A DNA stretch of 32,000 nucleotides, taken from the NCBI RefSeq assembly GCF_000227685.2, contig NZ_CP007029.1, forward strand, positions 306,047 through 338,046, written 5' to 3'. Below are positions 12,229 to 29,911 of the stretch, piece by piece; position 1 is the first letter of the stretch; the number at the start of each line of letters is the position of its first letter. Under the pieces are notes generated by a model. It did not search any database and had not been told where the DNA came from. It saw only the letters and a program-made list of their open reading frames with translations. The position numbers and the translations under genes were made by a program. Source of the stretch: Thioalkalivibrio paradoxus ARh 1 (lineage in GTDB: Bacteria > Pseudomonadota > Gammaproteobacteria > Ectothiorhodospirales > Ectothiorhodospiraceae).

Positions 12229-12304
12229 GGCCAGGTAGCTCAGTTGGTAGAGCAGGGGATTGAAAATCCCCGTGTCGGCGGTTCGATTCCGTCCCTGGCC
12301 ACCA
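12229..12304 (+). tRNA. tRNA-Phe (anticodon GAA)
   Basis: 76 nt; acceptor stem GGCCAGG/CCTGGCC, D-arm AGCTCAGTTGGTAGAGC, anticodon loop ATTGAAAAT (GAA), T-arm GGTTCGATTCC, encoded CCA. Confidence 0.95.
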
Positions 12305-12307
12305 TTT
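12297..12307. repeat. attL core (direct repeat GGCCACCATTT)
   Basis: Exact 11-bp match to 29901-29911; overlaps the 3' end of tRNA-Phe. Confidence 0.75.
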
Positions 12308-12337
12308 AACGTTCTGACAAGGTTCAAAGAAGTCACC

Positions 12338-12363
12338 AAGCCGCTGAAAAAGCGGCTTTTTTT
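12338..12363 (+). terminator. rho-independent terminator downstream of tRNA-Phe
   Basis: AAGCCGCT-GAAAA-AGCGGCTT followed by a 7-T run; an almost identical copy lies at 29942-29966. Confidence 0.75.
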
Positions 12364-12403
12364 ATGCCTGTAAGGTCGCAGGAGGTCCAGAGCGGTCGCT
12401 TGA

Positions 12404-12466
12404 GTTACCCCGAGGGATAGGGGTAACTTGTGGGGTAACTGGTCGAGCGGAAAAGGGAGTTACCCC
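12404..12466. promoter_or_regulatory. cluster of four GGGGTAAC/GTTACCCC motifs upstream of int (candidate arm-type sites)
   Basis: GTTACCCC 12404-12411 and 12459-12466; GGGGTAAC 12420-12427 and 12432-12439; same motif twice near attR (29813-29832). Confidence 0.45.
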
Positions 12467-12469
12467 ACT

Positions 12470-13699
12470 ATGCCCCTCACAGACGCCGAAATCCGCGCCC
12501 TGAAGCCCGGGGAACGCCCGTTCAAACGCTACGATGAACACGGGCTCTTCATCGAGGTGCCGCCGTTTGGGGCGCTACGCTGGCGGTTCCGCTACAAGTT
12601 CGCTGGCAAGGCGAAGCTGATGAGCCTGGGCACCTACCCCGCCGTCCGCCTGAAGGCGGCCCGAACCGCCCGGGACGATGCCCGCGACCTGCTGCGCAAG
12701 GGGATCGACCCCAGCACGCGCAGGCAGGCCGAGAAACGCGCGCAGGCTCGGGCGGGCCAGCGCTCCGTCGAGGCCGTGGCGCGGGAATGGTTCGAGGCGG
12801 TGCACCAGAAAGCCGTGGTGGCAACGCACTCCGGACGCAACCTGCGTCGGCTCGAGCGCTACGTGTTCCCCAAGATCGGCCGCCGTGCCATCGGGGAGAT
12901 CGAGCCGTCAGACGTGCTCGCCCTGCTGCGCGGCATCGAGAAGGCCGGCAAGCTGGAGACGGGCCACCGGGTCAAGACCCTGCTCGGGCACGTATTCCGG
13001 TATGGGATCGCCACCGGCCGAGCGAAGCGCGACCCAACCGCCGATCTGAAGGGGCTGCTGGCCAGCGCCGAGACACGCCACCATCCGGCCGTGACCGACC
13101 CCTCCGAACTACCGGGGCTGTTGCGCGCCATCGACGGATACACCGGATACCCCCCCACCGTGGCCGCGCTGAAGCTGTCCGCGCTCCTGTTCGTCCGCCC
13201 CGGGGAGATGCGGACAATGGAATGGGCGAGCCTGCGCCTGGATGCCGCTGAATGGAACTATCGTCCGAGCAAGGGCGGAATCCCACTGCTGGTGCCGCTA
13301 CCGACGCAGGCGGTGGAGATCCTGCGGGAACTGCAACCGCTGACCGGGCTTGGGACGTATGTGTTCCCGAGTGCACGCGGCCGCGGCCGGCCGATGAGTG
13401 AAAACACCGTGAATGCTGCGCTGCACCGAATGGGGTACAAGGACCAGATGAGTGCGCACGGCTTTCGAGCCATGGCCCGCACCATCCTGGTCGAGCGCCT
13501 GGGCTGGGATGAGCGCTACGTAGAAATGCAACTCGGGCACGCGGTACGCGACGCCAATGGCCGTGCCTACAACCGGGTCACGTTCCTCGATCAGCGCCGG
13601 GAGATGCTGCAAAGCTGGGCCGATTATCTGGACGGGCTGCGCGATCCAGCGGCGAACGTCGTTCCGATACGGGCAGGTAGCGCGGCGGCTGTCCGATAG
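12470..13699 (+). CDS. int: tyrosine-type integrase, P4/CP4-57 family
   Basis: ORF 12428..13699 trimmed to MPLTDAEIRALKPGERPFKRYDEHGLFIEV at 12470 (typical P4-integrase N-terminus); C-terminal catalytic region (HGFRAMARTIL, LGHAVRD, RAYNRV). Confidence 0.9.
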   Translation: MPLTDAEIRALKPGERPFKRYDEHGLFIEVPPFGALRWRFRYKFAGKAKLMSLGTYPAVRLKAARTARDDARDLLRKGIDPSTRRQAEKRAQARAGQRSVEAVAREWFEAVHQKAVVATHSGRNLRRLERYVFPKIGRRAIGEIEPSDVLALLRGIEKAGKLETGHRVKTLLGHVFRYGIATGRAKRDPTADLKGLLASAETRHHPAVTDPSELPGLLRAIDGYTGYPPTVAALKLSALLFVRPGEMRTMEWASLRLDAAEWNYRPSKGGIPLLVPLPTQAVEILRELQPLTGLGTYVFPSARGRGRPMSENTVNAALHRMGYKDQMSAHGFRAMARTILVERLGWDERYVEMQLGHAVRDANGRAYNRVTFLDQRREMLQSWADYLDGLRDPAANVVPIRAGSAAAVR

Positions 13700-13781
13700 T
13701 TAGGAAGCACAGGTATTGCGAAACGGATAGGTAAAATAGTTTAGGGTCGTGGACACTCGCCTGATGTCGTGACAATAGTAT

Positions 13782-13813
13782 GGGTGTCGCCCACTCACAG
13801 CGAGGCGACACCC
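13782..13813. promoter_or_regulatory. 10-bp perfect inverted repeat abutting the alpA-like start
   Basis: GGGTGTCGCC (13782-13791), 12-nt spacer, GGCGACACCC (13804-13813); ATG at 13814. Confidence 0.35.
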
Positions 13814-14059
13814 ATGACCCACATGCAGACCCGTAGTGCCCCCCGCCCCACCGAGCAGCCGAGCCCGATCGGCGACCCTTTACTCCGGATGCCCGCAGTA
13901 CTCGCGGCGACCGGAATATCTCACAAAGCAACGATTTATGCGGCGATGGCCGCTGGCACGTTCCCGAGGCCGGTTCGGATCGGCTCGCGTGCTGTGGCGT
14001 GGCGATCGAGCGATATTGCGGCCTGGATCGCCACGCGCCCGGTTGCGGGTGATGAGTGA
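13814..14059 (+). CDS. alpA: AlpA-family HTH protein (excisionase/transcriptional regulator type)
   Basis: LLRMPAVLAATGISHKATIYAAMAAGTFPRPVRIGSRAVAWRSSDIAAWI matches the AlpA/prophage CP4-57 regulatory pattern; start uncertain (GTG 13769 or ATG 13814). Confidence 0.75.
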   Translation: MTHMQTRSAPRPTEQPSPIGDPLLRMPAVLAATGISHKATIYAAMAAGTFPRPVRIGSRAVAWRSSDIAAWIATRPVAGDE

Positions 14060-15489
14060 TGGACGCGCAAAACCACCGACCCGGGGGTGGCAGCCCCCGG
14101 GCGGATCGAGCAGATAGTGGGATCGCCGATGGACACCGGCCCCGACATTATGCCGCAACGCATAACCAGGCGCTAGCCCGCCAACTGAGCCCGGACCAGG
14201 CCCGCGCGCTGGAAGAACTGATCGCGTTCGACCGGGGCACCGAGCCCGTGCACGCGCTGGCCGGCCCGGCAGGGAGCGGCAAGACATTCCTACTCGGCGA
14301 GTTCGTGGGGCGGTGCAGCCGTCGTTTGGAGATCACGGCGACGACCAACAAGGCCGCAAGAGTCGCCGCGCTCGCGACCGGCACCGAGCCCAAGACGATC
14401 CACGCCCTGTTGGGGCTCCAGCCGCGCGACGATGAGAACGCCGGCCGGACCGCCCTGAAGCAAATCCGCGACCCAGAGGTTGAACCGGGCTCGCTGGTGG
14501 TGGTGGATGAAGCGTCAATGATCGACTCCGATCTGCTCGGCGCGATCGAGCGTCACGCGCGGACCCTCCGGTTCAAGGTCCTGTTCGTCGGCGATGCGTA
14601 CCAGCTCCCACCGATTTTCGAGGCGCGGAGTCCGGTATTCGCCGGCGTGCCAACCAGCCACCTGACGACCATCCACCGGCAGGCCCTCGACAATCCGGTG
14701 CTCGCCATCGCGAACGAGTTTCGGGCCGTGCTGGACGGCAGCCCGATGCCGCGCGTGCGTGCGCTTGGAAGCGAAGTTCGGGTTCTGCCCGAAGGCGAGT
14801 TCCTGGCGCGCATGCTCGAGGCGTTCGAGCGGGCGAGTGACCCGTCGGAGGTCCGGGCGCTGGCCTGGACGAACCAAACCGTCCGGGAGCTGAACCAGGC
14901 CGTCCGGCGCCACCTGATCGGTCCCGAAGCCGAGGAATTGGCGCACCTGCCCGGCGAGCGATTCATTGCGAATTCCGCAATCAAGGACGGCGACCGCGTG
15001 GCAGTGCCGACCGAAGCCGAAGTCGAGGTTGTGAGCAGCCAGCGCGTGAACTTCGAGGCGGACGGGATCACATTCGCCGGCGAGCTGGTGTCCGTCCGCT
15101 ACCGCGATCGCGTGCTCGAGCTGCACGTCCCGACGGACTGGGATGGCGCTCGGCGCGCGATAGCCGCTTCGGTGGCAGCCGCCAACGAGCTGCAGCGCCG
15201 CTATCGGGCTGGCGATCGCACTGTGGACGGGGACCGCCGCGCGGCGTGGCGCGCCTTTTTCCGGCTGAAGGAGTGGCTGCACGACCTGCGTCCGGTCTAC
15301 GCGTCAACCGTCCACAAATCCCAGGGCAGCACCTACGCGCACGCGTTTATCGACGCGGGAGACATCGGCCGGTGCACCCGAACCGACGTGATCGCGCGAC
15401 TGATGTACGTGTCCACGAGCCGGGCCGCGCAGTCGGTGACGCTGACTGGCGAGCTGCCGGAGCGACTGTACCGGGAGGTGGCGGCATGA
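14056..15489 (+). CDS. SF1 RecD/Dda-like DNA helicase (AAA_30 plus UvrD_C-like)
   Basis: Walker A GPAGSGKTF, Walker B VVVDEASMI, FVGDAYQLPPI, TIHRQ, STVHKSQGSTY; start overlaps the alpA-like stop. Confidence 0.8.
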   Translation: MMDAQNHRPGGGSPRADRADSGIADGHRPRHYAATHNQALARQLSPDQARALEELIAFDRGTEPVHALAGPAGSGKTFLLGEFVGRCSRRLEITATTNKAARVAALATGTEPKTIHALLGLQPRDDENAGRTALKQIRDPEVEPGSLVVVDEASMIDSDLLGAIERHARTLRFKVLFVGDAYQLPPIFEARSPVFAGVPTSHLTTIHRQALDNPVLAIANEFRAVLDGSPMPRVRALGSEVRVLPEGEFLARMLEAFERASDPSEVRALAWTNQTVRELNQAVRRHLIGPEAEELAHLPGERFIANSAIKDGDRVAVPTEAEVEVVSSQRVNFEADGITFAGELVSVRYRDRVLELHVPTDWDGARRAIAASVAAANELQRRYRAGDRTVDGDRRAAWRAFFRLKEWLHDLRPVYASTVHKSQGSTYAHAFIDAGDIGRCTRTDVIARLMYVSTSRAAQSVTLTGELPERLYREVAA

Positions 15490-16307
15490 CGGCACCGGCA
15501 TTCACCTTCGCCAGCGTCGGCGATCGTGCCCGCGGCCGGTGGCCCGAGATCCTGGCCGGGCTGGGGATCGACCCGGCCGCACTGCGCAATCGTCATGGGC
15601 CGTGCCCCGGTTGCGGTGGGCGGGATCGGTTTCGGTTCGATGACCGGGAGATCGGCCGCTTCTACTGCAACGGCGGTGGCGAGCCGGTATCTGGCGACGG
15701 GTTCGCGCTGTTACAACACGTCTTCGACTGGACCGCGAGCGAGGCCCTACAGGCCGTTGCGCAGTCGCTCGGCATGGACAGCACACACCCGCCCCCGAAA
15801 CCGGCACCACGCCCGCCGACGAAGGCCCCGGGGCCCTCCAGGCTGGCCGCCTACGCTCGCGAAACGTGGCTGGCCGCACGGAAAGATGATGCTGCCGTGG
15901 GCTCACATCCATACGCCCGGCGGAAGGGAGTTCCTTGGGCCGCCGGAGCCGGGCGCGCTCGAGCATCGGGACGCATCATCGGGCGGGATTCTGACTGCCT
16001 GATCGTGCCGATCCGAACTCTGGTGGGAAAGCTCCTGGCGGTTCAGGCAATCAATCCCGACGGCGCCAAGCAGACTTTCGGCTCGATGGGCGATGGCTGC
16101 CTGGTGCTCGGGAACACCTTGGATGCGCGGGCGCCGTGGATCGTCGCCGAGGGATGGGCCGATTGCGCGTCCTTCTGCTTCCACCTGCATCGGGGCAACG
16201 CCGTAGCTGTTGTGGCCTTTGGCGCGAGTCGGCTGCAAAAAGTCGCAGAGGCGGTTGCCGCGCACTATGCGCCGCCCCGTGTGACCATCATGGAGGATGC
16301 CCCGTGA
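15486..16307 (+). CDS. primase: zinc-ribbon (P4-alpha type) plus Toprim domain
   Basis: ORF 15246..16307 trimmed to MTAPAFTF at 15486 (ATGA overlap with the helicase stop); HGPCPGCGGRDRFRFDD...GRFYCNGGG zinc-binding motif; Toprim-like WIVAEGWADCAS. Confidence 0.75.
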   Translation: MTAPAFTFASVGDRARGRWPEILAGLGIDPAALRNRHGPCPGCGGRDRFRFDDREIGRFYCNGGGEPVSGDGFALLQHVFDWTASEALQAVAQSLGMDSTHPPPKPAPRPPTKAPGPSRLAAYARETWLAARKDDAAVGSHPYARRKGVPWAAGAGRARASGRIIGRDSDCLIVPIRTLVGKLLAVQAINPDGAKQTFGSMGDGCLVLGNTLDARAPWIVAEGWADCASFCFHLHRGNAVAVVAFGASRLQKVAEAVAAHYAPPRVTIMEDAP

Positions 16308-17923
16308 CTGAACTTTATCGAGGGACATTGGCGCGGGGACCGAACGGCGAGAAGGATATCAATGATGCCGTCCTCAACAATCACCCCGATCTTGTTGACG
16401 AGGCGTTTCGTGGCGCAAAGCCGGTAAACGGCGAGAAGGAAAAAACCAAGTCGAGCCTGATTACCTACGACGAGGCCGCTGGCGCCAATCCGAACACCGA
16501 ACAAGGGGCCGCGCTCATCAAAGCCTACCGGAAGCAGGAGCGCGAAGCGTTCAACGCCCGGTACGGAATGCTGATGATCGAGGGCAAACCAGTCGTGGTC
16601 TACCGAGAGCGGAACGGGAATACGGGCGAGATCGAAACGAAGTTCTCGAGCCCGGAGGCCATGGCGACCTTCACCGCCAACCGGAAAATCCCGTTCGTTG
16701 TCGAGACAGGGAAGGAGTCCCGTATCGAGTGGAAGCCGATCTTCCAGGACTGGAAGCAGGGCCGGTGGCGGCGTTCCTACGATCAGCCCGTGTTCGCGCC
16801 GGCCGCGAATCTTGAGGCCAGCACGGACATGCCACCAGCCGGGGGCACCTACAACCTCTACGCCGGGCACCAGTTCAAACCCAAGCCCGGCAACTGTGAA
16901 CGCATCTTGCAACATATCGGGGAGGTGTGGTGCGCGGGGAATTCTGAAGCCTTTGATTACATCGTCAACTGGCTGGCGCGAATGGTGCAAAAGCCGCGAG
17001 AGCAGGGGCGCACCGTCATTGTCCTGCGGTCTGGCGAGGGCACCGGCAAAAACATCCTGTTCGACACCTTTAGCCGGTATTACGGAAACCATGCCTGCAT
17101 GCTGACGAAGCCGGAGGATCTGGTTGGCTTCAACGACCATCTGGCGACGGCGGTATTCGTGTTCCTGAACGAGGCGTTGTGGGGCGGAAACAGGAGCGCG
17201 GAAGGCCCGGTCAAGAGCGCGATTACCGACGACACGCTGATGGTGGAGCGCAAATGGGTACCCAAGTTCAAGACGGCGAACTGCACCCACATCGTCGTCG
17301 CCACCAATAACGACTGGGCGGTTCCCGTCGGTATAGACGACCGCAGGTTTCTGATTCTCGATCTGGATGAGAAGCACAAGGGAGACGCCGCCTACTTCGA
17401 CGGGCTCCTGCGTGAGATCCACAACGGCGGTCAGGAGGCTTTCATCCACTACCTGATGGCCCGCGACATCACCCGGTTCGACGTGCGCGCCATACCTGAG
17501 ATTCAGAGCGCATCGAAACTGGACCACAAAGTGAGGACCAGTGACCCGATCACTCAGTGGTGGATCGACACGCTGACCGACGGCGAGTTTGCCCACGAGA
17601 TCGAGGATACGGACACCCACGGTCGGCCGGTTCGGCGTGTTGCAGTGACCGCTTGGCCAATGGACAAGCCGCTAATCATCGAAGAACAGGCAGTCTTTAA
17701 CTGCTACTGCCGCGCGCACCGGAGCCGCCACCTGGACAGCAAGGCGGTGCTCACGAAGAAATTGCGTGAGCTGTGCCCCGGCCTACGGACCGGCCTGCGC
17801 CATCGCACATCTGCGTCCTCGCGCCCGAGGCTTTACGGCCTCCCCGCCCTGAGCACGGCGCGGGAAGCGATGGAACTGCGGCTGCGCCAGCGAGGGCCAT
17901 GGGCCGATGAGGCAGACCAGTGA
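16304..17923 (+). CDS. SF3 helicase-type NTPase (D5 / P4-alpha C-terminal / DUF5906-like)
   Basis: ORF 16136..17923, probable GTG start at 16304 (GTGA overlap with the primase stop); Walker A SGEGTGKN, Walker B VFVFLNEA, motif C VVATNN. Confidence 0.75.
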   Translation: MTELYRGTLARGPNGEKDINDAVLNNHPDLVDEAFRGAKPVNGEKEKTKSSLITYDEAAGANPNTEQGAALIKAYRKQEREAFNARYGMLMIEGKPVVVYRERNGNTGEIETKFSSPEAMATFTANRKIPFVVETGKESRIEWKPIFQDWKQGRWRRSYDQPVFAPAANLEASTDMPPAGGTYNLYAGHQFKPKPGNCERILQHIGEVWCAGNSEAFDYIVNWLARMVQKPREQGRTVIVLRSGEGTGKNILFDTFSRYYGNHACMLTKPEDLVGFNDHLATAVFVFLNEALWGGNRSAEGPVKSAITDDTLMVERKWVPKFKTANCTHIVVATNNDWAVPVGIDDRRFLILDLDEKHKGDAAYFDGLLREIHNGGQEAFIHYLMARDITRFDVRAIPEIQSASKLDHKVRTSDPITQWWIDTLTDGEFAHEIEDTDTHGRPVRRVAVTAWPMDKPLIIEEQAVFNCYCRAHRSRHLDSKAVLTKKLRELCPGLRTGLRHRTSASSRPRLYGLPALSTAREAMELRLRQRGPWADEADQ

Positions 17924-17965
17924 CCCGGACTTGGGCGCGACCGATGCAGCCACGACACCCTGGCC

Positions 17966-18217
17966 TGGACCACTTGGACCAAAAAAAGGCATTTTTAAAC
18001 AGCTACTTACGGTTGGTGGTCCAGGTGGTCCAGGTGGTCCAAAGAATTTCAAAAAGTATCCAAAGGCCCAGATTGGCCCCTGGGGGGAACAAGTTGGAAA
18101 AGTGCCCCGGATCTTGGACCACCTGGACCAGAAGCCCAGTTGGCCAGGAAAAACAACCACTTGTGGTGGTCCAGGTGCCTGGACCACACCTGGACCACCT
18201 GGACCACACCTGGACCA
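17966..18217. repeat. iteron block: 12 copies of TGGACCA/TGGTCCA (consensus ACCTGGACCAC) with AT-rich tracts; candidate replication origin
   Basis: TGGACCA at 17966, 17975, 18115, 18124, 18180, 18191, 18200, 18211; TGGTCCA at 18017, 18026, 18035 (9-bp phasing) and 18167; AT-rich 17981-18000 and 18041-18062. Confidence 0.7.
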
Positions 18218-18233
18218 CAACAGGAGGCATCCC

Positions 18234-18497
18234 ATGGGGACGATCCGCAGCCAGAGCCCACGCCACGAGATGAGCGCGCCGAGCCTGAACGACAGCATCC
18301 GCACGGTTTCCGCTGCGTGCGAATCCCAGGGGCTGGATGCTTCTCCAGACGCGAGGCTTGCCGCAGCCGTGGAGCTTTTCCGGCACGGTCACTGGATGAA
18401 TGACCGGGACACGCACGACGAACAGGCTGGCGGCATCGCTGACTGCCTGGATCGCATCGCTGCCGCTATCGAGCAGTTCAGCGGGGCGCCACCATGA
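18234..18497 (+). CDS. hypothetical protein (87 aa)
   Basis: ATG 18234 preceded by AGGAGG (18222-18227), immediately after the iteron block; no recognisable domain. Confidence 0.5.
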   Translation: MGTIRSQSPRHEMSAPSLNDSIRTVSAACESQGLDASPDARLAAAVELFRHGHWMNDRDTHDEQAGGIADCLDRIAAAIEQFSGAPP

Positions 18498-18582: not shown

Positions 18583-18741
18583 ATGACACAGCAACGCGAC
18601 CTTTTCCGAGGCAAACCGGCCCGAAAGCCCCGCCGCCCCGGGAGCTACCGCCGGCAGGAGCCGCCGAGGACGCCCAGAGACACGGCTTGGGAGCTGCCCG
18701 AGGATTTCCAGCCGGCCGCAACGAGCAAGGAGGATCAGTGA
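18583..18741 (+). CDS. hypothetical small basic protein (52 aa)
   Basis: MTQQRDLFRGKPARKPRRP..., AAGGAG upstream, stop overlaps the next start; short, so uncertain. Confidence 0.3.
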   Translation: MTQQRDLFRGKPARKPRRPGSYRRQEPPRTPRDTAWELPEDFQPAATSKEDQ

Positions 18742-19145
18742 TGGGCGCGATGAGCCGAACGAAAGGAGCCGCGGGAGAACGCGAACTGCGCCGGTTGCTC
18801 GAGGCCGAGTTGGGACCGGGGATCAGCCGGAACCTGTCCCAGACCCGGGATGGTGGGCATGATCTGACCGGCGTCGGGCCGTTTGCCATCGAAGTGAAGC
18901 GCTACAAGCGGGCGACCGCTTCGATGCTGGCCGCGTGGTGGACGCAGGCTGAGGCTCAGGCGGAATCCGCCGGCCTACGTCCTGCCCTGGCCTGGCGCGA
19001 GGATCGCGCGCCCTGGCGCGTCCTGGTGCGCCTGGCGGACGTTCGGCCCGGGCTGGGACCGTGGCCCGGGATCGAGTGGACCGCCGCTGTTACGCTGCCC
19101 GCGTTCGCTGCGCTGGTGCGGGAAACGGGGAGGGCTGTCCGATGA
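18741..19145 (+). CDS. PD-(D/E)XK nuclease, Hjc-like Holliday-junction-resolvase type
   Basis: Start MGAMSRTKGAAGERELRRLLE at 18741 with AAGGAGG RBS; motif order KG..GE(R/E)...D(L)...IEVKR fits Hjc-like PD-(D/E)XK resolvases common in phages. Confidence 0.55.
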   Translation: MGAMSRTKGAAGERELRRLLEAELGPGISRNLSQTRDGGHDLTGVGPFAIEVKRYKRATASMLAAWWTQAEAQAESAGLRPALAWREDRAPWRVLVRLADVRPGLGPWPGIEWTAAVTLPAFAALVRETGRAVR

Positions 19146-20017
19146 CAGCACAGATTGCGCGCCTTGATGGGAGCGGAGGAACCGGCGTGAGCGACAAGAC
19201 CAGGGAGCGCAAGGCTGGGGAATTGTGGGCACGTGCATCACGGGACGTGGAGTCCGGAGATAGTTCCCTATGGCGCATCGCGCTGCACATTCAGCAAATG
19301 GTGGAAGGCGTGAGGGACTTCCCTGGTCCGCTGTGGCGAGACCGGGAGGTACCGCCAGACTGGAAGCGGGTGCATCTGGATCGCTTCGAGGATTACCTGT
19401 TGAAGCCGCCGCGGGAGGGGATTGGGGTGCCGTCCCTGCTGCGGCTGCACAACCACATGCAGGGGCACGACGAAGGCGAGCGTGCCATCGAGATCCTGCG
19501 TCGCGAGATCCCGGACTATGACGCCCGCATCCAGGCCGAGCGGATGCGGGCGGTGAAGCCGGTGGCCAGGCCGGGCGGTACCGGGGCGAACCAGCACACG
19601 GTTGATAAGAGCAAAGGTGCCAACGGCACATCTGCTCAGGTTAAGGCCCCCAAGCCGAGAGGTACCAATAGCCGCGACCACATCATCGGCCGCCTAAAGC
19701 GTGACGCGCGCGAGGATCCGAAGGCGAAGGAGGTGCTTGCCCGTGTGGAGAAAGGTGAGGTGAGCGCGCGAGCGGCTGGTATCGAGATGGGTTGGGTGAA
19801 GCCTGCGGATCCTGCGCGGATTGTCGAGAAGCAGGTGGAGCGGCTGAGCGACGACGAGGTCGTCGATCTCTACAAGAACCTCGCCAGATCCCTCCCCGAA
19901 GCCAAGTGGAACCACCTTGAGGCCGCCAAGGAAGCCGTCATGGCGCTGAGCGACGACGAGATGGCCGGGTTCGAGGCTTGGTACCGATCCTTGGCTGGCG
20001 TTGGGGGTGACCAGTGA
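19142..20017 (+). CDS. hypothetical DNA-binding-like protein (carries the GGTGANQ...RGTNSRDHIIGRLKRD...GEVSARAAGIEMG module)
   Basis: ATG 19142 (ATGA overlap); C-terminal module shared with ORFs at 24183 and 27115; family not identified. Confidence 0.6.
   Translation: MTAQIARLDGSGGTGVSDKTRERKAGELWARASRDVESGDSSLWRIALHIQQMVEGVRDFPGPLWRDREVPPDWKRVHLDRFEDYLLKPPREGIGVPSLLRLHNHMQGHDEGERAIEILRREIPDYDARIQAERMRAVKPVARPGGTGANQHTVDKSKGANGTSAQVKAPKPRGTNSRDHIIGRLKRDAREDPKAKEVLARVEKGEVSARAAGIEMGWVKPADPARIVEKQVERLSDDEVVDLYKNLARSLPEAKWNHLEAAKEAVMALSDDEMAGFEAWYRSLAGVGGDQ
19484..19704. repeat. 221-bp segment duplicated (diverged) at 27316-27536
   Basis: Same length in both copies; first ~42 bp differ at one position; encodes AIEILRREIPDYDARIQ...GGTGANQ...IIGRLKRD in both. 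Confidence 0.8.
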
Positions 20018-20196: not shown

Positions 20197-20214
20197 CCAA
20201 GGGAGACACGAGAC

Positions 20215-20655: not shown

Positions 20656-20718
20656 TGCGACCATGGACCTGTACGACGTACCACGGTGCCGACGGGCGCC
20701 ATAACCGAGGACCGACCG

Positions 20719-21347: not shown

Positions 21348-21372
21348 CCCGGCCTCGTGCCGGGTTCTTTTT
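21348..21372 (+). terminator. rho-independent terminator
   Basis: CCCGGC-CTCGT-GCCGGG followed by TTCTTTTT. Confidence 0.7.
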
Positions 21373-21398
21373 GCCCGTTTCGGCCCGGGTTTTACCCC

Positions 21399-24155: not shown

Positions 24156-24183
24156 AGCCCCGGCACGTCCGGGGCTTTCTCGT
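24156..24183 (+). terminator. hairpin terminator candidate
   Basis: AGCCCCGG-CACGT-CCGGGGCT followed by TTCTCGTT (weak T tract). Confidence 0.45.
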
Positions 24184-24956
24184 TGTGGGCGGCCGACATC
24201 GCGGCGAGGGTTCAGGAGTTGCGCGAGCAGAACCCCGACGTCACCCAGCGGGAGATTGCGGAAAGCGCGGGGGTGACGCAACAAAGGGTGTCACAAGTAA
24301 TTACTTGTACCCCTGAGAAGAAGCAAGCCGAGTCGAAGCGCCTATCCGCCCGCCAGCTCTACCTGCCGAAGGATGCGGCGCAGGCGGCCGACATCGCGGC
24401 GAAGGTGCGGGAGATGAAGGAGCAGAACCCGGAGGCGACGCAGAGGGAGATTGCCGCCGAGGTTGGTATCAGTGATCGGCATGTGAGGCGGATCAATGAG
24501 GACACAACTGTGTCCGCTTCCCGCAAGGCCCGTAATTCCGCCAACACGACCGCCCGCCAGCTCTACCTGCCGAAGGATGCAGCGCAGGCGGCCGACATCG
24601 CGGCGAAGGTGCGGGAGGCTGCGGAGAATCCGTTGCGGGAAAGCACCGGCAGACCGGAAGGGAAGAATGTTGTTAATAACAACATTAGAGCGGGCAATCA
24701 TGACCAGACCTACACCCTTCGCCGCCTGGCCCGCGATAACCCGGAACTGCTGGACAAGGTAGAAGCCGGCGAACTGACAGCCAATGCCGCCGCGATCCAG
24801 GCCGGGTTCCGGAAACCTACCAAGACCATCCCGGTGGACTCGGCAGAATCTGCAGTCCGGGCACTGCTGCGCGTGTTCCTGGCGGCCGAAATCCAGGCCG
24901 CGATTACCGAGGACAAGGAGCCGAGCGCGGGGGCGGTGGCCCCGGATGTGTCGTGA
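24183..24956 (+). CDS. protein with three tandem HTH-like modules plus a YTLRRLARDNPELLDKVEAGELTANAAAIQAGF DNA-binding-like module
   Basis: TTG start per ORF track (no nearby ATG); modules ADIAA(R/K)V(Q/R)E..EQNP..TQREIA...G; contains a 68-bp near-exact in-frame duplication. Confidence 0.55.
   Translation: MWAADIAARVQELREQNPDVTQREIAESAGVTQQRVSQVITCTPEKKQAESKRLSARQLYLPKDAAQAADIAAKVREMKEQNPEATQREIAAEVGISDRHVRRINEDTTVSASRKARNSANTTARQLYLPKDAAQAADIAAKVREAAENPLRESTGRPEGKNVVNNNIRAGNHDQTYTLRRLARDNPELLDKVEAGELTANAAAIQAGFRKPTKTIPVDSAESAVRALLRVFLAAEIQAAITEDKEPSAGAVAPDVS
24346..24617. repeat. 68-bp direct repeat (24346-24413 and 24550-24617), one mismatch, 204-bp offset
   Basis: CCGCCCGCCAGCTCTACCTGCCGAAGGATGC(G/A)GCGCAGGCGGCCGACATCGCGGCGAAGGTGCGGGAG in both copies; offset of 68 codons keeps the frame. 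Confidence 0.9.
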
Positions 24957-25019: not shown

Positions 25020-25763
25020 ATGCAGAACATGACCGAGAAAGCCCGCGATCGCGTGGCCGCGGCGCAAGCCGAACTGGACGAGGCCGTATCCCGTGGCGAG
25101 GACACGAGTTCGATCCGTGCGACGTTGGGCCTGGCCATCGAGGAACTGGACCGGGTCGAAGCCGAAACCGAGGCACAGGCTCGCGCGGCGGCCGGTGCCG
25201 CGCAGGATGCTGTTCGTGCCGACGCTGAGCGACTGGCGAACGAAGCCGCCGCAGAGATTCAGGATGTCGTGGACCGGGTGCTTACGATCTCGAAGCCCGA
25301 GGTCGAGGTGCCAGCGGATCGCGCGGTGGACCTGTTGCTGGCGCAACAGAAGGCCCAAGCCGAGGATTCCGCGATTCGGGCTCACCGCCACAAGGTCGGG
25401 GAGCTTCGGGAACGCCTTGAGCGCCTGAAGGCCGAGCGTGCCGAGATCGGACAGCGACGGGCTGCGGGTGATGAACGCCCCGACGATGCCGCGCGGGTCC
25501 ACCTGCTGGCGACGGATGCCGAAGCGCTGGAGGATCTGATCGCGCGAGTCGAAGCCGAAGCGCCGGCCCGGGACGAACTCGTGACCAAGGCGCTGCGCGA
25601 GTGGGAGCGCGGCTGGAACAACGCGGTCAAGGAGGTTCGCGTTCACGCGCTGGCGTTGACCTGCCAGCGTCTTGAACTGGCGTTGATGGCCGCGGCGACC
25701 GCGCACCGAGACGCCGGCGGTATTCGGCGCATGGACGCGCGGTTGGCGCAGTGGGTGCGGTGA
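25020..25763 (+). CDS. hypothetical coiled-coil protein (247 aa)
   Basis: Ala/Glu/Arg-rich helical composition; no recognisable domain. Confidence 0.5.
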   Translation: MQNMTEKARDRVAAAQAELDEAVSRGEDTSSIRATLGLAIEELDRVEAETEAQARAAAGAAQDAVRADAERLANEAAAEIQDVVDRVLTISKPEVEVPADRAVDLLLAQQKAQAEDSAIRAHRHKVGELRERLERLKAERAEIGQRRAAGDERPDDAARVHLLATDAEALEDLIARVEAEAPARDELVTKALREWERGWNNAVKEVRVHALALTCQRLELALMAAATAHRDAGGIRRMDARLAQWVR

Positions 25764-25966
25764 TGGCCGCCCCGACTGGACGCAAGCCTGGCCGACCGCG
25801 GAACCTCGGACGCCAAACGCGCCTGGCGCTGCATGATCGCCTGGCGCCTGAGATTCCTGGGCTCATTGAAGGCATGATCCGGCAGGCCAAGCTGGGCGAC
25901 TCGCGGGCGATCGCTTGGTGCCTGGACCGGGCGCTGGGGCCGGGTAGTCTGCCCGCCGATGGCTGA
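25763..25966 (+). CDS. small protein with AT-hook-like N-terminus (GRKPGRPR)
   Basis: ATG 25763 overlapping the upstream TGA; pattern ...IRQAKLGDSRAIAWCLDR resembles small phage packaging/regulatory proteins; tentative. Confidence 0.4.
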   Translation: MAAPTGRKPGRPRNLGRQTRLALHDRLAPEIPGLIEGMIRQAKLGDSRAIAWCLDRALGPGSLPADG

Positions 25967-26252
25967 TGAGCGGCCGGACCCGGAGGGCTGGCGTGTCACT
26001 GACCACGTGTGCCGGTACTGCCTTGGGCGCGTCCTGGAAGGCCAGCGGGAGGACGGCAGCATCGTTGCCCGCTGTGCCGACTGCGGAGCCCGCGGTGAGG
26101 GGCCGCACGACAGCGTATGCTTCTGCGGTGCGGCACTACCGAACGGCCGGCATGCTGGGCTGGCCTGCGTGCCGAACGAGAATCCGACCCCGGAGCGCTC
26201 GGCTGAGGTTGTGGTGATCTACGTTGGGGAGGATGTGCGATGCCGAGGTTGA
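25959..26252 (+). CDS. Cys-rich zinc-ribbon-like protein (97 aa)
   Basis: CRYC...CADC plus CFC...C spacing; overlaps neighbours on both sides. Confidence 0.45.
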   Translation: MADERPDPEGWRVTDHVCRYCLGRVLEGQREDGSIVARCADCGARGEGPHDSVCFCGAALPNGRHAGLACVPNENPTPERSAEVVVIYVGEDVRCRG

Positions 26253-26815
26253 CGAAAGACGAGTGGGCCGAGGCGCGCGCCCTGCGGGAAGGGGCCGGGT
26301 TGCCGTTCTCGGAGATCGCCGAGCGGATGGGCGTGGACCGTGCCGCAGTGTCCCGCCGAGCGAAGAAGGAACAGTGGGACGACGGGCAGAATGTCGCCGT
26401 AGCCATCCAGAAGAAAGTCACGGAAAAGCTCACGCGGATAGTCACGCCGAGTGACCCGGTAAAAAAGGCCGAAGCCATCGACGCCGAGGCCGCCCGCCGG
26501 GCTGGAGTGATCGACAAGCACCGGGACGAACTCGAGGCCGCGCGGGTGATGGCCCGGGCCGCGAAGGAGAACCACCAGAACGTTGGGGACCAGATTCCCG
26601 CGGACATCCACGATCCGATGGAGCGGGCGCAGGCTCTGCTGTCCATGAAGCGCGGTGCCTTCGAGGACCTGAAGGCCGCGAAGATCCACGTTGAGACCCT
26701 GAAGCTGATTCAGGAGGGCGAGCGCAAGGCCTGGGGGCTGGATATGCCGGTGGACCTGAGTGCATTGACCGACGAGCAGCTTGCAGCGCTGGCATCCGGG
26801 CGGATGCCGGTCTGA
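26240..26815 (+). CDS. HTH protein resembling Mu gp27/DUF1804-type small terminase subunit
   Basis: N-terminus LTKDEWAEARALREGAGLPFSEIAERMGVDRAAVSRRAKKEQWDDG fits the Mu-like gp27 pattern from memory; helical C-terminus ending ERKAWGLD. Confidence 0.45.
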   Translation: MPRLTKDEWAEARALREGAGLPFSEIAERMGVDRAAVSRRAKKEQWDDGQNVAVAIQKKVTEKLTRIVTPSDPVKKAEAIDAEAARRAGVIDKHRDELEAARVMARAAKENHQNVGDQIPADIHDPMERAQALLSMKRGAFEDLKAAKIHVETLKLIQEGERKAWGLDMPVDLSALTDEQLAALASGRMPV

Positions 26816-26821
26816 AGGAGC

Positions 26822-27022
26822 CTACCCGAAGTCTCCCTCTCGGTCCTGGGCGGGCTTCCCGCCCTCGGTGCCCCCCGGCTGCTTCACCTTCGAGAGTTCC
26901 GCGTCGATGCGCCGGTCTACCTCGGCAACGTCCACCCCGTAGTCCTCGGGGTCGACCTGGCCCATGATCTCCTTCATGCGCCGGTCCACGCTCTCGCTGA
27001 TACTGTCGATTGAGCCGCCCAT
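26822..27022 (-). CDS. hypothetical acidic protein (66 aa); only minus-strand gene in the element
   Basis: GGAGG RBS 5 nt upstream of the ATG; convergent with the TerS-like gene (6 bp between stops). Confidence 0.5.
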   Translation of the reverse strand: MGGSIDSISESVDRRMKEIMGQVDPEDYGVDVAEVDRRIDAELSKVKQPGGTEGGKPAQDREGDFG

Positions 27023-27114
27023 GGCTACCTCCGTCTGTCCGGTCCGTCCACCTTAATTGTAGGTTCTACCGGGATTCCGTGCCGTTTCCGGTGCGTTTCG
27101 TCGGGCTGGGAGCG

Positions 27115-27645
27115 ATGGCCCGCCGTGATACCAGACCCCCGATCCAGCGGGAGCGGGCCAAGGCCGGTGCCGAGAAGGCGAGGGCGAATCCTCTGGATAG
27201 CCACGGCGGAGACCGGAAAGGGGATCAAGGTTCGGGCCGAACCTTGAAGCCCAAGCGAGGGGAGAACCGCGACTACATCCTGTCCAGGCTGGCCCGGGAG
27301 GCGAAAGGCGGTGATGCCATCGAGATTCTGCGTCGCGAGATCCCGGACTATGACGCCAGGATCCAGCGGGAGCGGACGGCTGCGGTGAAGCCGGCGGCCA
27401 AGCATGGCGGGACCGGGGCGAACCAGTACACAGGCGAGGAGAGCAAACCTGACAATGTAAGGTCTGCTACTCCTGACCCCAAGCCCAAGGGTTACGGCAA
27501 CAGCAAGGACTACATCATCGGCCGCCTGAAGCGTGATTCGCGTCTCAATGGAGAAGCCTCGGGGCGAACCAATACACGGTCAATCAGAGCAAAGCTGATA
27601 ATATCAACTTTGCTTGTGCCAGTGAGCCAATGCCAGAAAGGGTGA
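27115..27645 (+). pseudogene. truncated/decayed paralog of the 19142-20017 gene
   Basis: Shares AIEILRREIPDYDARIQ..GGTGANQ..IIGRLKRD but then runs into AT-richer, non-homologous sequence; lacks the C-terminal domain of the full copy. Confidence 0.5.
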
Positions 27646-27820
27646 AAACAGCAGTGACAATGTAACGGCTGTTTCCCGGCGAGCCTAAGACCCGGGCGCG
27701 AACGGAGAGGAAAACAAAGCTTATAAAATAACCTTTGTTTCCATGCCCAAGCCCTGATGGTGGGAAAGGGAAGCGGCCGAAAGTTGGCTAAGCCCCGAGG
27801 GTAGGAAAGGCAAAGGAACT

Positions 27821-27880
27821 AAAGGTGCCAATGGCACAGTTAGTTCCGGGCGGGCAACCAAGCCGAGAGGTACCAACAGC
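27821..27880. repeat. third fragment of the same paralogous module
   Basis: AAAGGTGCCAATGGCACA...AAGCCGAGAGGTACCAACAGC matches 19613-19672; no intact ORF around it. Confidence 0.6.
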
Positions 27881-27987
27881 AAGAACAGCGAGCCGGTACC
27901 GTACCGACCGGGAACGCCCGCGTTGACCTGGCTACCGTCCTGGCCGATCCTTCCCGTACCCACCAACAGCCAGCGAGGGAACGCGCC

Positions 27988-28167
27988 ATGCTCGTACTGA
28001 CCCGCCGTGTCGGCGAAACGCTCATCATCGGCGACGAGATCGCCGTCACCATCCTGGACGTGAAGGGCAATCAGGCCCGCGTCGGCATCGAGGCGCCCAA
28101 GGACGTGACCATCCTCCGCGAGGAACTGAGGGACCGGCCGGCCCCGGCTGTGCGCAACGCCCGCTGA
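27988..28167 (+). CDS. csrA: carbon storage regulator CsrA/RsmA homolog (59 aa; below the ORF-track length cutoff)
   Basis: My translation: [59 protein letters not shown]; near-canonical CsrA signature (MLxLxRRxGE...VKGNQVRIGIxAPK...REE). Confidence 0.85.
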
Positions 28168-28192
28168 ACGTCCGTTCGGCCGGCCTGGGTAT

Positions 28193-28218
28193 CCCAGACG
28201 GAACCTGCTGGGTTTTCT
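28193..28218 (+). terminator. weak terminator candidate after csrA
   Basis: CCCAG-ACGGAACCTG-CTGGG followed by TTTTCT; the loop contains GGA. Confidence 0.3.
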
Positions 28219-28241
28219 GAGCGAGCAACCTGCCCTGGCGA

Positions 28242-28273
28242 GGGCAAGGCACTGCCTGGACGGTGCCTTGCCC
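28242..28273 (+). other. 11-bp perfect stem-loop with GGA in the loop
   Basis: GGGCAAGGCAC-TGCCTGGACG-GTGCCTTGCCC; no T tract after it. Confidence 0.5.
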
Positions 28274-28359
28274 GGTCGCGTGCGGGCGGTCGATACCGCT
28301 GGCATTCCTTTCAACCCGGTGCCATACTCCAATCAGAGGGCACGATTCAGGAGGCGGCA

Positions 28360-28536
28360 ATGCCGCGAGGTGGTAAGCGTCCGGGAGCAGGCAGGAAATC
28401 GCTGCCGGAGGACGTGAAGAAGCACAAGATCACGGTTCGGCTGAAGCGCGAGGCGGTTGAGTGGTTACGCGAGCAGCCGGTGAGCCAGGGACAGGCCATC
28501 GAGGACCTGATCGAAGGAGCACGCAGGAAGGAGTAG
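28360..28536 (+). CDS. ribbon-helix-helix (CopG/Arc-like) DNA-binding protein (58 aa; not in ORF track)
   Basis: My translation: MPRGGKRPGAGRKSLPEDVKKHKITVRLKREAVEWLREQPVSQGQAIEDLIEGARRKE; RBS CAGGAGG; beta-strand/helix/helix pattern typical of RHH. Confidence 0.55.
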   Translation: MPRGGKRPGAGRKSLPEDVKKHKITVRLKREAVEWLREQPVSQGQAIEDLIEGARRKE

Positions 28537-28612
28537 AGAAACGCCCGAGCCGAGCGGGGGCAACCGCAAGGCCCGGACTTCCCACGACGGAACACCTATG
28601 GAGGCCACCGTC

Positions 28613-28813
28613 ATGAGCACAGCAAGTCTAGCAGTCCGTCCACGTTCCGTGGACGCATCCCCCGAAGCCCATCCCGGTATCCGCTGGTGGAACAGCCTGC
28701 CCGAGTCCGAGCGCAAGGACTGGCTGAAGCTGGCCAACAGCGCCGTGCCGGCCGATGCCTGGAAACTCCGGAACCAGTTGATGACCGGGATCCACGGGAG
28801 GGACGCGGCATGA
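28613..28813 (+). CDS. hypothetical protein (~66 aa)
   Basis: ORF 28598..28813; ATG 28613 preceded by GGAGG. Confidence 0.4.
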   Translation: MSTASLAVRPRSVDASPEAHPGIRWWNSLPESERKDWLKLANSAVPADAWKLRNQLMTGIHGRDAA

Positions 28814-29079
28814 ACGCCCGCATCCGCCTGGCGCGCGCCTATCGGCATGGGTTCAGTCGTGGCTGGTTGAACCTCAGCATGGACCCACCGCGCTCGTTGC
28901 GCCTGACCGACACCGAGGCCACCGTCTACCGCGATGGCTGGGAATCCGGCCGCAGGGAGCGCCTGGAGATCCCGGTGGCGTTCCAGGTTCGTAGGGTCGC
29001 CACGTTCGCACCCGCAGCAAAAGCGCCCAGTCCCAGCGGTAGCACCCGCCCGGACCGGACTTCCCACACGGCAACCTGA
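28810..29079 (+). CDS. hypothetical protein (89 aa)
   Basis: ATGA overlap with the upstream stop; MNARIRLARAYRHGFSRGW... Confidence 0.4.
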   Translation: MNARIRLARAYRHGFSRGWLNLSMDPPRSLRLTDTEATVYRDGWESGRRERLEIPVAFQVRRVATFAPAAKAPSPSGSTRPDRTSHTAT

Positions 29080-29095
29080 GAAGGAGGAAGCCGAC

Positions 29096-29284
29096 ATGAG
29101 CACGAGCGAGCATACCGCAACCCCGCGGATCGACCCGATCAACGCCCTCTGGGCTCGCATCTACGAGGTCCGCGACCGATTCTATGCCGCGGTCGACGAC
29201 CTGGACGTTCAAGCAGCCACCGAGCAGCGCATCCGCGCCGACGAACTCTACCAGGCCATCCGGACCCTGCGGGGTGCCGCATGA
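29096..29284 (+). CDS. hypothetical acidic protein (62 aa)
   Basis: ATG 29096 preceded by GAAGGAGGA. Confidence 0.45.
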   Translation: MSTSEHTATPRIDPINALWARIYEVRDRFYAAVDDLDVQAATEQRIRADELYQAIRTLRGAA

Positions 29285-29535
29285 ACGCCCTGCGCCTGGA
29301 AGCGGTGCCCACCGGCACGGACGAGTTCGAGCAGGCGTATCACCAGGCTATGGGCCGCATCACAGCGCTGACCGGGATCGTCGGCACCCTGGCCCGCGCG
29401 ACCGCCCATAGCCCCGGTGGCGACGATGGCGAAACCTCGGACGCCTGCGCGCTCTACTGGCACCTGCGCGACGAACTCGAATCCCTGAGCCTGGAAGTGC
29501 AGGAGCTTTCGCGTAGGCGTCACGATCCGGGCTGA
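29281..29535 (+). CDS. hypothetical acidic protein (84 aa)
   Basis: ATGA overlap with the upstream stop; followed by a strong terminator. Confidence 0.45.
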   Translation: MNALRLEAVPTGTDEFEQAYHQAMGRITALTGIVGTLARATAHSPGGDDGETSDACALYWHLRDELESLSLEVQELSRRRHDPG

Positions 29536-29566
29536 CCTGCTGCCGCTGATCCCGCCGCCCTACCGA

Positions 29567-29591
29567 CCCCGGCCGCTGTGCCGGGGTTTTT
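29567..29591 (+). terminator. rho-independent terminator
   Basis: CCCCGGC-CGCTGT-GCCGGGG followed by TTTTT. Confidence 0.75.
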
Positions 29592-29611
29592 CGTGGGTGG
29601 GGGCTCTTGCC

Positions 29612-29702
29612 GGTTCCCCCGGTTCCCCCGCCGGGGAACCCTTGGGGAACCGGAAAACCCCAATTAAATCAACGAGGTTCCCCCGGTTCCCCCGGTTCCC
29701 CC
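29612..29702. repeat. second iteron block: GGTTCCCCC x5 direct, GGGGAACC x2 inverted, AT-rich centre
   Basis: GGTTCCCCC at 29612, 29621, 29676, 29685, 29694 (9-bp phasing); GGGGAACC at 29633 and 29644; CAATTAAATCAA at 29661-29672. Confidence 0.75.
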
Positions 29703-29812
29703 GGAAAAACATCGACCCCGAGCGTATCCGGACCGGGCTCCGAGGGTTCAGAATTCGCAGCCGGGGCGCGAGGGTCCGCGAGCGCGGCAGGCTGGGTACC
29801 AGGGAAATCGGA

Positions 29813-29832
29813 GGGGTAACAAGAGGGGTAAC
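29813..29832. promoter_or_regulatory. two direct GGGGTAAC motifs (candidate arm-type integrase sites, attR side)
   Basis: GGGGTAAC at 29813-29820 and 29825-29832; same 8-mer as the four copies upstream of int. Confidence 0.45.
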
Positions 29833-29900
29833 AGATTTTCTTGGTCTCTCACAAAGGTATTGTTATCAATGTGTTGCCGTGGGTTTTCGGTGGAGTCCCG

Positions 29901-29911
29901 GGCCACCATTT
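29901..29911. repeat. attR core (direct repeat GGCCACCATTT)
   Basis: Exact copy of 12297-12307, preceded by a degenerate T-arm-like sequence (GGTTTTCGGTGGAGTCCCG). Confidence 0.75.

Follow-up and report, generated by a model that had tools for sequence, protein, structure and literature searches.

Among the phage satellites described so far, the phage-inducible chromosomal islands (PICIs) have a packaging gene (terS, ppi or rpp) as a further marker, the PICI-like elements (PLEs) use a large serine recombinase and replicate via a RepA_N initiator, and P4 is not known to have either terS or tmp, the genes for the small terminase subunit (TerS) and the tape-measure protein (TMP). Here we examine a 32,000-nucleotide stretch of the chromosome of Thioalkalivibrio paradoxus ARh 1 (hereafter the window) in which a 17.6-kb element, at positions 12297-29911, adjoins a tRNA-Phe gene. 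Its gene content suggests that this integrated element is probably a phage satellite that depends on a helper, laid out much like a PICI or P4 but with a PLE-like tape-measure gene in addition. The closest precedents for such a gene are recent. The PLEs of Vibrio cholerae encode their own TMP and tail assembly chaperone (TAC) as well as baseplate hub and form chimeric tails on the myophage ICP1; this work was the first demonstration of a satellite-encoded TMP, in 2025, and predicted tmp genes were noted there in further putative satellites (bioRxiv 10.1101/2025.01.29.635557). The EPIP satellites of Mycolicibacterium aichiense carry a TMP together with a small terminase (PMC12822802). The PICI model of SatelliteFinder, on the other hand, takes integrase, AlpA and primase/replicase as core markers and treats tail genes as a "forbidden" component (PMC10085698).

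The element occupies the 3' end of tRNA-Phe(GAA) (12229..12304, + strand), for which ARAGORN and Rfam (RF00005, 71 bits) agree on the end at 12304 that had been given in an earlier interpretation of the letters of this DNA (the sequence-only reading). The 11-mer GGCCACCATTT named in that reading has exactly two exact copies in the window, against a chance expectation of 0.03, and these form the attL (12297..12307) and attR (29901..29911) crossover cores. The left flank (1-12228) consists of housekeeping genes (hemN, rph, yicC, a dnaJ-like gene, degP, asmA, mutY and yggX), and the sister species Thioalkalivibrio nitratireducens, with a MutY ortholog 86% identical, has the matching order hemN...asmA-mutY-yggX-tRNA-Phe. 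MutY of the window, like the 827-aa and 247-aa proteins of the element described below, matches an NCBI protein of T. paradoxus at 100% identity. An empty site, which the sequence-only reading had suggested looking for in relatives, is present there: the T. nitratireducens tRNA-Phe gene is followed by the counterpart of the post-attR flank of the window, with no 17.6-kb element. Past the core, the T. nitratireducens flank agrees with the attR flank at 86.6% identity, the usual level for orthologous DNA between these two species, versus 81.7% for the attL flank. As the T. nitratireducens site lacks the 17.6 kb, this segment is, by comparison with the sister species, a true insertion at the 3' end of tRNA-Phe, and the crossover falls within the 11-bp core. 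The sequence predicts an attP junction of ...GGTGGAGTCCCG-GGCCACCATTT-AACGTTCTGACAAGG... and a repaired attB of ...CCGTCCCT-GGCCACCATTT-CACCTTCCAGCAAGG.... The degenerate T-arm copy described before the attR 11-mer is there, albeit as a loose likeness: the 22 nt in question are element-derived and agree with the T-arm at 13 of 20 aligned positions.

Element open reading frames (ORFs) were assigned by Pfam and PHROGs profile searches, and their starts were set by a gene call made independently for this strain on a Logan contig (L111). Across all candidate ORFs, neither profile collection revealed a capsid, portal, large terminase (TerL), sheath, tube, baseplate or holin gene, Pfam revealed no relaxase, coupling-protein or type IV secretion system (T4SS) family, and seven TerLs verified by Pfam, used as tblastn queries, matched the window at noise level only. 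These searches agree with the sequence-only reading, in which genes for a capsid, a portal, TerL, a relaxase, a coupling protein or a T4SS had likewise gone unrecognized; the profile searches that it called for brought up no full set of virion or conjugation genes. Whole-element megablast against GenBank phages and PLSDB plasmids returned no match. Very divergent virion genes among the ORFs could have escaped these searches. Except for the two largest, the ORFs without an assigned family are at most 146 amino acids (aa) long and look low-complexity or coiled-coil, and the 247-aa and 292-aa proteins are all-helical in AlphaFold2 (AF2) models, which argues that neither hides a capsid or portal fold.

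Two genes of virion type stand out against this background. The first, at 21651..24134 (+), encodes a protein of 827 aa that ends in an SLT lytic transglycosylase domain (Pfam SLT, 5.5e-20). It matches tail PHROGs (phrog_2013, phrog_58 and others), its top PDB match is a TMP with an SLT domain, and it has only 7 matches at E<=1e-20 among 5.8 billion proteins. The homolog P0004, 46% identical over the full length, sits in a 54-kb metagenomic contig (L108). There it comes after genes for a head protease, the major head protein, the sheath and the tube of the tail, and two small ORFs, and ahead of tail and baseplate proteins, which is the tape-measure slot of a myophage. A second homolog, P0005 (29% identity), is placed in this slot as well, with genes for PAAR, a tube initiator and baseplate J downstream. 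On the strength of this full-length homology and gene order, we identify the 827-aa protein as a TMP of myophage type. At 1.5-1.6 A per residue, its length would predict a tail of about 125-130 nm. Other searches were less informative. A scan of genome contigs with the whole protein gave 80 unrelated loci dominated by SLT-domain patterns, an IMG/VR scan with its N terminus gave a single distant 81-kb phage contig, and metagenome scans with alignments of the TMP N terminus and of TerS confirmed nothing. With phmmer, all element proteins compared against the ORFs of L108 and of a further locus, L081, matched nothing besides the TMP, and no TAC was recognized.

The second virion-type gene (26240..26815, +) encodes a 191-aa protein with a helix-turn-helix (HTH) and 357 relatives in an exhaustive HMMER search. 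The protein and 30 of 30 relatives tested match phrog_1206 ("terminase small subunit"). In the GenBank phage Dolphis, a methyltransferase rather than TerL follows the TerS-like match, and for this reason we quantified the neighborhood in IMG/VR. There, a TerL-like gene lies <=2.5 kb downstream of the TerS homolog at 47 of 71 loci by tblastn, and Terminase_6N/6C follows the homolog in 7 of the 10 contigs checked by Pfam. The family match and this neighborhood together identify the 191-aa protein as a small terminase. The sequence-only reading had called it Mu gp27-like, a label that we drop because no Pfam family whatever reaches the cut-off for this protein. Upstream of terS lie a 71-aa ORF and a 97-aa Cys-rich Zn-ribbon ORF (25751..26252, +); in seven phage contigs (L117, L118, L127, L156, L159, L163 and L164) a homolog of the latter immediately precedes that of TerS, and the 97-aa ORF has no match to Ogr_Delta. 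No TerL follows TerS in the window element or in a related element of T. nitratireducens. Since the TerS and TMP homologs sit in complete phage modules and the window has no TerL, we regard both genes as phage-derived orphans.

The left part of the element holds its integration and replication genes, all on the + strand. A tyrosine integrase of 409 aa and P4/CP4-57 type (12470..13699; Pfam Arm-DNA-bind_3, Phage_int_M and Phage_integrase; start as in L111) with intact RPGE...HGFR...GH...Y motifs is followed by an AlpA-family excisionase/regulator (13814..14059; Phage_AlpA, 1e-15; phrog_66; start from L111) and a Dda-like superfamily 1 (SF1) helicase with Walker A GSGKT and Walker B DEAS (14059..15489; AAA_30, AAA_19 and UvrD_C_2; phrog_325, 1.8e-91). 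Next come a DNA primase with a Zn ribbon (15486..16307; Zn_Ribbon_Prim; phrog_510, 3e-38) and a superfamily 3 (SF3) replicative helicase of the D5/P4-alpha type (16304..17923; Pfam DUF5906, 6e-16; phrog_1156, 6e-35). The catalytic and NTPase motifs of these genes are intact in the window element. Directly after the SF3 helicase gene come about 11 GGTGGTCCAGG iterons at 17964-18219, in both orientations and with AT-rich patches between them, which mark a putative replication origin (17950..18220). With <=2 mismatches, GGTGGTCCAGG has 38 matches where 14 are expected, and those with 0-1 mismatches cluster in 17950-18220. With an SF1 helicase, a primase, an SF3 helicase and an adjacent iteron-bearing, AT-rich putative origin, the replication module looks complete as judged from its genes. 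Pfam and PHROGs thus bear out each function that had been read from the letters for these five genes, as they do for the PD-(D/E)XK nuclease, the tape-measure-like SLT protein, the small terminase and CsrA, and the iteron block is likewise real. The ORF formerly listed at 17907-18233 coincides with the putative origin and is probably no gene.

Both arms of the element also carry candidate regulatory sites. A terminator scan placed an element-borne terminator at 12338..12366 (+), its hairpin at 12338-12358, that would substitute for the native tRNA-Phe terminator; the same hairpin recurs at 29942-29962 and at the T. nitratireducens tRNA-Phe locus (L110). Four GGGGTAAC/GTTACCCC repeats (12404..12466; found by sequence reading and as repeat search family D14), which the right arm matches with two more (29813-29832), may serve the Arm-DNA-bind_3 integrase as arm-type sites.

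The related T. nitratireducens element (L107) spans ~17.0 kb at tRNA-Ser(TGA), with a 12-bp core, CACCTTCTCCGC, and arm repeats of its own. The two elements have a core module in common at 65-93% aa identity, comprising a 52-aa ORF, the PD-(D/E)XK nuclease, ORFs of 60, 146, 135 and 73 aa, the TMP (92% aa identity), parts of an HTH protein, a 247-aa coiled-coil protein, the 71- and 97-aa ORFs, TerS (65%) and a minus-strand 66-aa ORF. The genes around this core differ. The T. nitratireducens integrase is just 30% identical to the window integrase, the replication genes are DUF3987 and a single-stranded DNA-binding protein (SSB) with the SF1 helicase absent, and the cargo is a HigBA-like pair and an HD-domain protein, versus CsrA and small ORFs in the window. 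The iterons of this element form one cluster after its helicase gene and another near its right end. For all core genes tested, the ratio of nonsynonymous to synonymous divergence (dN/dS) between the two elements is 0.13-0.47, and for the TMP it is 0.13-0.14, indicating that the core module is under purifying selection in both. That the TMP is more similar between the species than housekeeping genes are might be taken as proof of a recent transfer, an argument that we rejected because synonymous divergence equals that of host genes (dS of 0.22-0.60 between the elements and 0.37-0.43 for host genes). A 3.3-kb metagenomic contig carries 52-aa-like and 60-aa-like ORFs with a TMP directly after them; that TMP is 78% identical to the window protein over the N-terminal ~545 residues and 68% overall. 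A Logan assembly contig of the strain ends at about window position 18668, precisely at the start of the shared core.

In its general features the element resembles a satellite: it is bounded by att sites with an integrase, it has replication genes and a putative origin, it lacks recognizable virion-building and lysis genes, and, on homology and neighborhood, the orphan TerS and TMP supply candidate hijacking functions. The closest overall layout is that of the Gram-negative PICIs such as EcCICFT073 and PmCI172, with which the element shares the order int, alpA, primase/replicase, accessory genes and then the packaging gene terS, as well as site-specific integration, a size in the 8-18 kb class and the lack of virion structural genes. 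The PICI core is thus present in full and in order. Unlike these islands, however, the element carries a tail gene, its TMP, that the SatelliteFinder rule, which we applied as described (PMC10085698), forbids; it also has an additional SF1 helicase, and no capsid-morphogenesis or Rpp/Ppi gene was recognizable. The sequence-only reading had found that the layout matched no canonical organization. This holds for the tape-measure gene, which is unusual, but not for the order from int and alpA through primase/helicase to terS, which is the general Gram-negative PICI order.

The likeness to P4 lies in the P4-type tyrosine integrase at a tRNA gene, in AlpA, in an iteron origin by the helicase gene and in the alpha functions of primase and SF3 helicase, which are split over two ORFs in the window element. 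The presumed helper would in both cases be a myophage, and the second iteron cluster of the T. nitratireducens element recalls P4 crr. With this P4 core present, the P4 hijacking genes were not found: no ORF matches Sid, Psu, Delta/Ogr or Epsilon in Pfam or PHROGs at E<=0.01. Like a PLE, the element is ~17-18 kb long with nearly all genes on one strand and its own replication module, and, although structural genes for capsid and tail are missing, it has its own TMP related to that of a contractile-tailed phage. Beyond this myophage TMP homolog, the resemblance to PLEs ends. The ORFs of the element have no Pfam or PHROGs match to the characteristic PLE families (a comparison of family profiles rather than of PLE sequences), and no equivalent of TAC, baseplate hub, TcaP or NixI was recognized in the element. 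The window element integrates at a tRNA gene with a tyrosine recombinase, and replication would depend on a primase and an SF3 helicase. Its TMP bears an SLT domain and shares 46% identity with a phage TMP, compared with ~20% between PLE and ICP1, and the host is a soda-lake sulfur oxidizer. EPIPs likewise carry a TMP and a small terminase, but the window element has no counterpart of their serine integrase, their head-to-tail adaptor and stopper, or their scaffolding and major capsid proteins, and they occupy Actinobacteria hosts with a siphophage-like helper. Finally, the capsid, portal, protease, connectors and terminase that a capsid-forming PICI (cfPICI) brings along are undetected here, save for TerS. 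By gene content, then, the element belongs to none of the PLE, P4, cfPICI and EPIP groups, and its unusual feature relative to a PICI/P4 backbone is the tape-measure gene.

The remaining ORFs of the element lie between and beyond these genes. After the putative origin come an 87-aa ORF with an AGGAGG ribosome-binding site (18234..18497, +; called as a gene in L111), the 52-aa ORF (18583..18741, +), conserved by tblastn in L107 and in a further locus, L113, and the PD-(D/E)XK nuclease (18741..19145, +; PDDEXK_15, 2.5e-11; 88-94% identity in L107), which PHROGs files under a "RusA-like resolvase" family (phrog_244, 4e-22). The adjacent 292-aa protein (19139..20017, +) is a putative DNA-binding protein without family matches, all-alpha in a low-confidence AF2 model and paralogous to the product of 27010-27645 (shared repeat family D4). 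A ~240-bp block is 80% identical between 19473-19710 and 27305-27542, inside these two ORFs. The two paralogs share the motifs GGTGANQ(H/Y)T and IIGRLKRD, and a related C-terminal motif occurs in the HTH protein described below. Next come four small ORFs (60, 146, 135 and 73 aa; 20014..21314, +), which are helical and conserved, with 73-93% aa identity to L107 over aligned stretches; for the 146-aa ORF the alignment covers the two termini only. None has a family match in Pfam or PHROGs, the three covered by the dN/dS estimate, of 60, 135 and 73 aa, have values of 0.39-0.47, and L113 keeps only the 60-aa ORF of the set. The ORF listed earlier at 21311-21571 is unconserved in the relative, contains a terminator-like hairpin and is probably no gene.

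Downstream of the TMP, a probable regulator with triple tandem HTH repeats (24183..24956, +) matches Sigma70_r4 and HTH_24 (tandem repeat families D6 and D7). Its gene consists of three ~200-bp tandem repeats, two of which agree at 99% over 68 nt, which suggests a recent internal duplication. The 247-aa protein encoded next (25020..25763, +) is an antiparallel coiled coil of four long helices in its AF2 model (mean predicted local distance difference test, pLDDT, 79), with dN/dS of 0.23 and 3 homologs among 5.8e9 proteins. A capsid-scaffold-like role for it is speculative and drawn from the model. A fold search gave non-significant generic coiled coils only, an IMG/VR scan gave no matches, and further PDB sequence searches were uninformative. 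A second paralog of the 247-aa protein (P0009, 84% identity) is present elsewhere in the T. paradoxus chromosome, implying a second related element in this genome. The 66-aa acidic ORF (26822..27022, -; 84% identity in L107) is the sole conserved minus-strand gene, in keeping with the description of all genes but one as lying on the + strand.

To its right lies variable cargo (27010..29535, +), made up of the 211-aa DNA-binding paralog, CsrA (27988-28167; Pfam, 1e-22) and four small ORFs, which is absent from L107 except for its first ~120 nt (blastn block 26875-27133). PADLOC detected no known defense system in the cargo, and its helicase matches reflect generic RecD-like similarity. An Rfam search detected the tRNA alone, with no P4-type immunity RNA or Csr small RNA, and the number of hits in a promoter scan was not above chance. 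At the right end, a non-coding region (29573..29768) holds seven GGTTCCCC(C) repeats at 29612-29702, between two blocks (29573-29603 and 29744-29768) that are 100% identical in both Thioalkalivibrio elements. Within the same brackets (L107 17265-17393), the T. nitratireducens element repeats the iterons of its origin, and its integrase gene is adjoined by GGGGGAACC repeats (L107 2096-2239). From this arrangement, the right-end GGTTCCCC(C) repeats may be cis sites of a packaging (pac) or crr-like kind.

Beyond attR and outside the 17.6-kb element lies the relic of an older related element (29912..30290, +), with the hairpin, the arm sites and about the first 95 codons of an integrase without its start codon. 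It is 77% identical to 12308-12649. Because this ~380-bp relic adjoins attR, similarity at the right end reaches far past the 11-mer, a point missed by the sequence-only reading, and 29886-30254 matches 12282-12649 at 77% identity. T. nitratireducens holds the same relic after its tRNA-Phe gene (L110 11519-11920; 86.6% identical), broken at the same point by a repeat of a CRISPR array. The relic, being common to both species, is therefore older than their split, making tRNA-Phe a recurrent target of this integrase lineage; the element itself, missing from the orthologous site, was therefore integrated after the relic had formed. In the window, the CRISPR array (30303-31207) is built of a 36-nt repeat (GCTTCAATTCCACCCCGGCGTTTGGCCGGGGATCAC) in 13 identical copies, its 12 spacers (35-38 nt) match neither the element nor any fetched phage locus, and it is followed by a Cas_GSU0054 (type I-G/I-U Csb2) fragment (31385-31957, -). 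The array abuts the truncated integrase relic at one breakpoint in both species, with only 1-2 degenerate repeats in T. nitratireducens. Past the relic (L110 11997-16167), that species has genes for a Tle1-like lipase of the type VI secretion system (T6SS) and a HepT-like toxin along with an IstB fragment, so the tRNA-Phe neighborhood is a variable island region there too.

The insertion at a tRNA gene, the alpA and integrase genes, the replication module, the absence of recognizable virion and conjugation genes, the orphan TerS and TMP, the swappable modules and the purifying selection all fit a helper-dependent satellite. The central proposal of the sequence-only reading, a satellite-like element with its own excision and replication genes and no packaging or transfer machinery, is thereby strengthened by the empty site, the intact motifs and the gene absences. 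With its own integration and replication genes and with TerS and TMP as its only virion-type genes, the element looks like a parasite of a contractile-tailed phage, and it may alter the tail of that phage too. At 17-17.6 kb, the two elements have roughly a third of the length of the 54-kb contig L108, an approximate stand-in for the genome of the phage with the closest TMP. In the mechanism that we propose, infection by or induction of a contractile-tailed helper would lead AlpA and the integrase to excise the element, which would then replicate from its own origin. TerS and its Zn-ribbon partner would steer the helper TerL to a satellite pac site, for which the GGTTCCCCC repeat cluster near attP is a candidate. 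The element TMP would be built into helper-made tails and yield island-carrying particles with chimeric tails, by analogy with the V. cholerae PLEs, and the coiled-coil proteins may remodel assembly. By these analogies, the element would plausibly work like a PICI in packaging and like a PLE in tails.

Several observations weigh against this account. Excision, replication, helper dependence and packaging are all read from gene content; recent horizontal movement is not demonstrated, given that dS in the element is like that of host genes; and protein searches brought up no further TMP homolog from either Thioalkalivibrio genome that would point to a helper. No TAC, capsid-remodeling protein or helper-sensing repressor was recognized by Pfam, PHROGs or phmmer, by which the conserved small ORFs also lack detectable homologs. 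The family is very narrow, at 3-4 loci, with metagenome scans finding no match. Moreover, in T. nitratireducens a frameshift splits the TMP gene into ORFs of 709 and 157 aa, the latter carrying the SLT domain (L107 10001-12591), and the PD-(D/E)XK gene is frameshifted as well (L107 6074-6524), through either early decay or sequencing error. These two frameshifts would fit a defective prophage, that is, a temperate myophage that has lost its head and most of its tail genes and whose remainder stays untransmitted and is perhaps partly domesticated. The closest homologs of TerS, its Zn-ribbon partner and the TMP are indeed in complete phages, a dS equal to that of the host is compatible with long residence, and the truncated integrase relic shows that decay does happen at this tRNA. 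We nevertheless consider such a remnant unlikely, as two elements with unrelated integrases, at different tRNAs and with different replication modules, have the same head-less gene set at 17.6 and 17.0 kb, on which independent decay would not converge. All core genes appear to be under purifying selection, with the TMP at 0.13; the replication and integration genes of the window copy are all intact; and the element, which the sister species lacks at the orthologous site, arrived after the relic was formed.

A satellite is also not the only kind of element that could replicate autonomously on paper, as these genes and iterons allow. An integrative mobilizable element or integrated plasmid-like replicon could move by conjugation or transformation, with the SLT protein as a wall opener and the HTH proteins in partition or regulation. 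SLT domains are known in VirB1-type proteins, the RecD/TraA-like fold of the SF1 helicase occurs in conjugative relaxase-helicases as well, and a 2026 paper reports satellites mobilized via natural competence (PMC13376191). Such a replicon is very unlikely here, however, with no relaxase, coupling protein or T4SS component in Pfam and with the SF1 helicase missing from the related T. nitratireducens element. Homology of the SLT protein to proteins in the myophage tape-measure slot extends over its whole length, beyond the SLT domain, and the family of the 191-aa HTH protein normally precedes TerL. Least probable of all is an autonomous small virus with capsid and packaging proteins too divergent for recognition, an idea that we regard as far-fetched even though about half of the ORFs have no detectable family and the genome size falls in the range of small tailless dsDNA phages. 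The conserved core holds no packaging ATPase of any class, its NTPases being confined to the swappable replication module; the largest unassigned ORFs are predicted to be all-helical, with no jelly-roll or HK97 fold, and the others are the short, low-complexity or coiled-coil ORFs noted above. A TMP, furthermore, has no known role absent a tail tube.

Returning to the satellite interpretation, we tentatively raise the possibility that the element and its Thioalkalivibrio relatives are an undescribed satellite family, defined by a kit of an orphan TerS with its Zn-ribbon partner and an SLT-bearing TMP, that would redirect the packaging of a soda-lake myophage and, by substituting for the tape measure of that helper, give rise to chimeric tails. 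Were this so, tail remodeling would have arisen independently of the Vibrio PLEs, on a PICI/P4-type backbone, and replication and integration modules would swap freely around a conserved kit. Before 2025, satellites were believed to use the tails of their helpers as they are, and PLEs are the only family for which a satellite's own tape measure in helper tails has been shown experimentally, although EPIPs may do likewise. The tRNA-Phe site has been used repeatedly, and the older relic there is fused to a CRISPR array. An island of this kind would be a concrete case of what current satellite finders probably overlook, and it would offer a compact system, with two hijack genes, candidate cis sites, a species with an empty site as control and a predicted helper type. 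If the element is indeed a satellite with an orphan TMP and TerS, tail manipulation would recur across unrelated satellite lineages and hosts.

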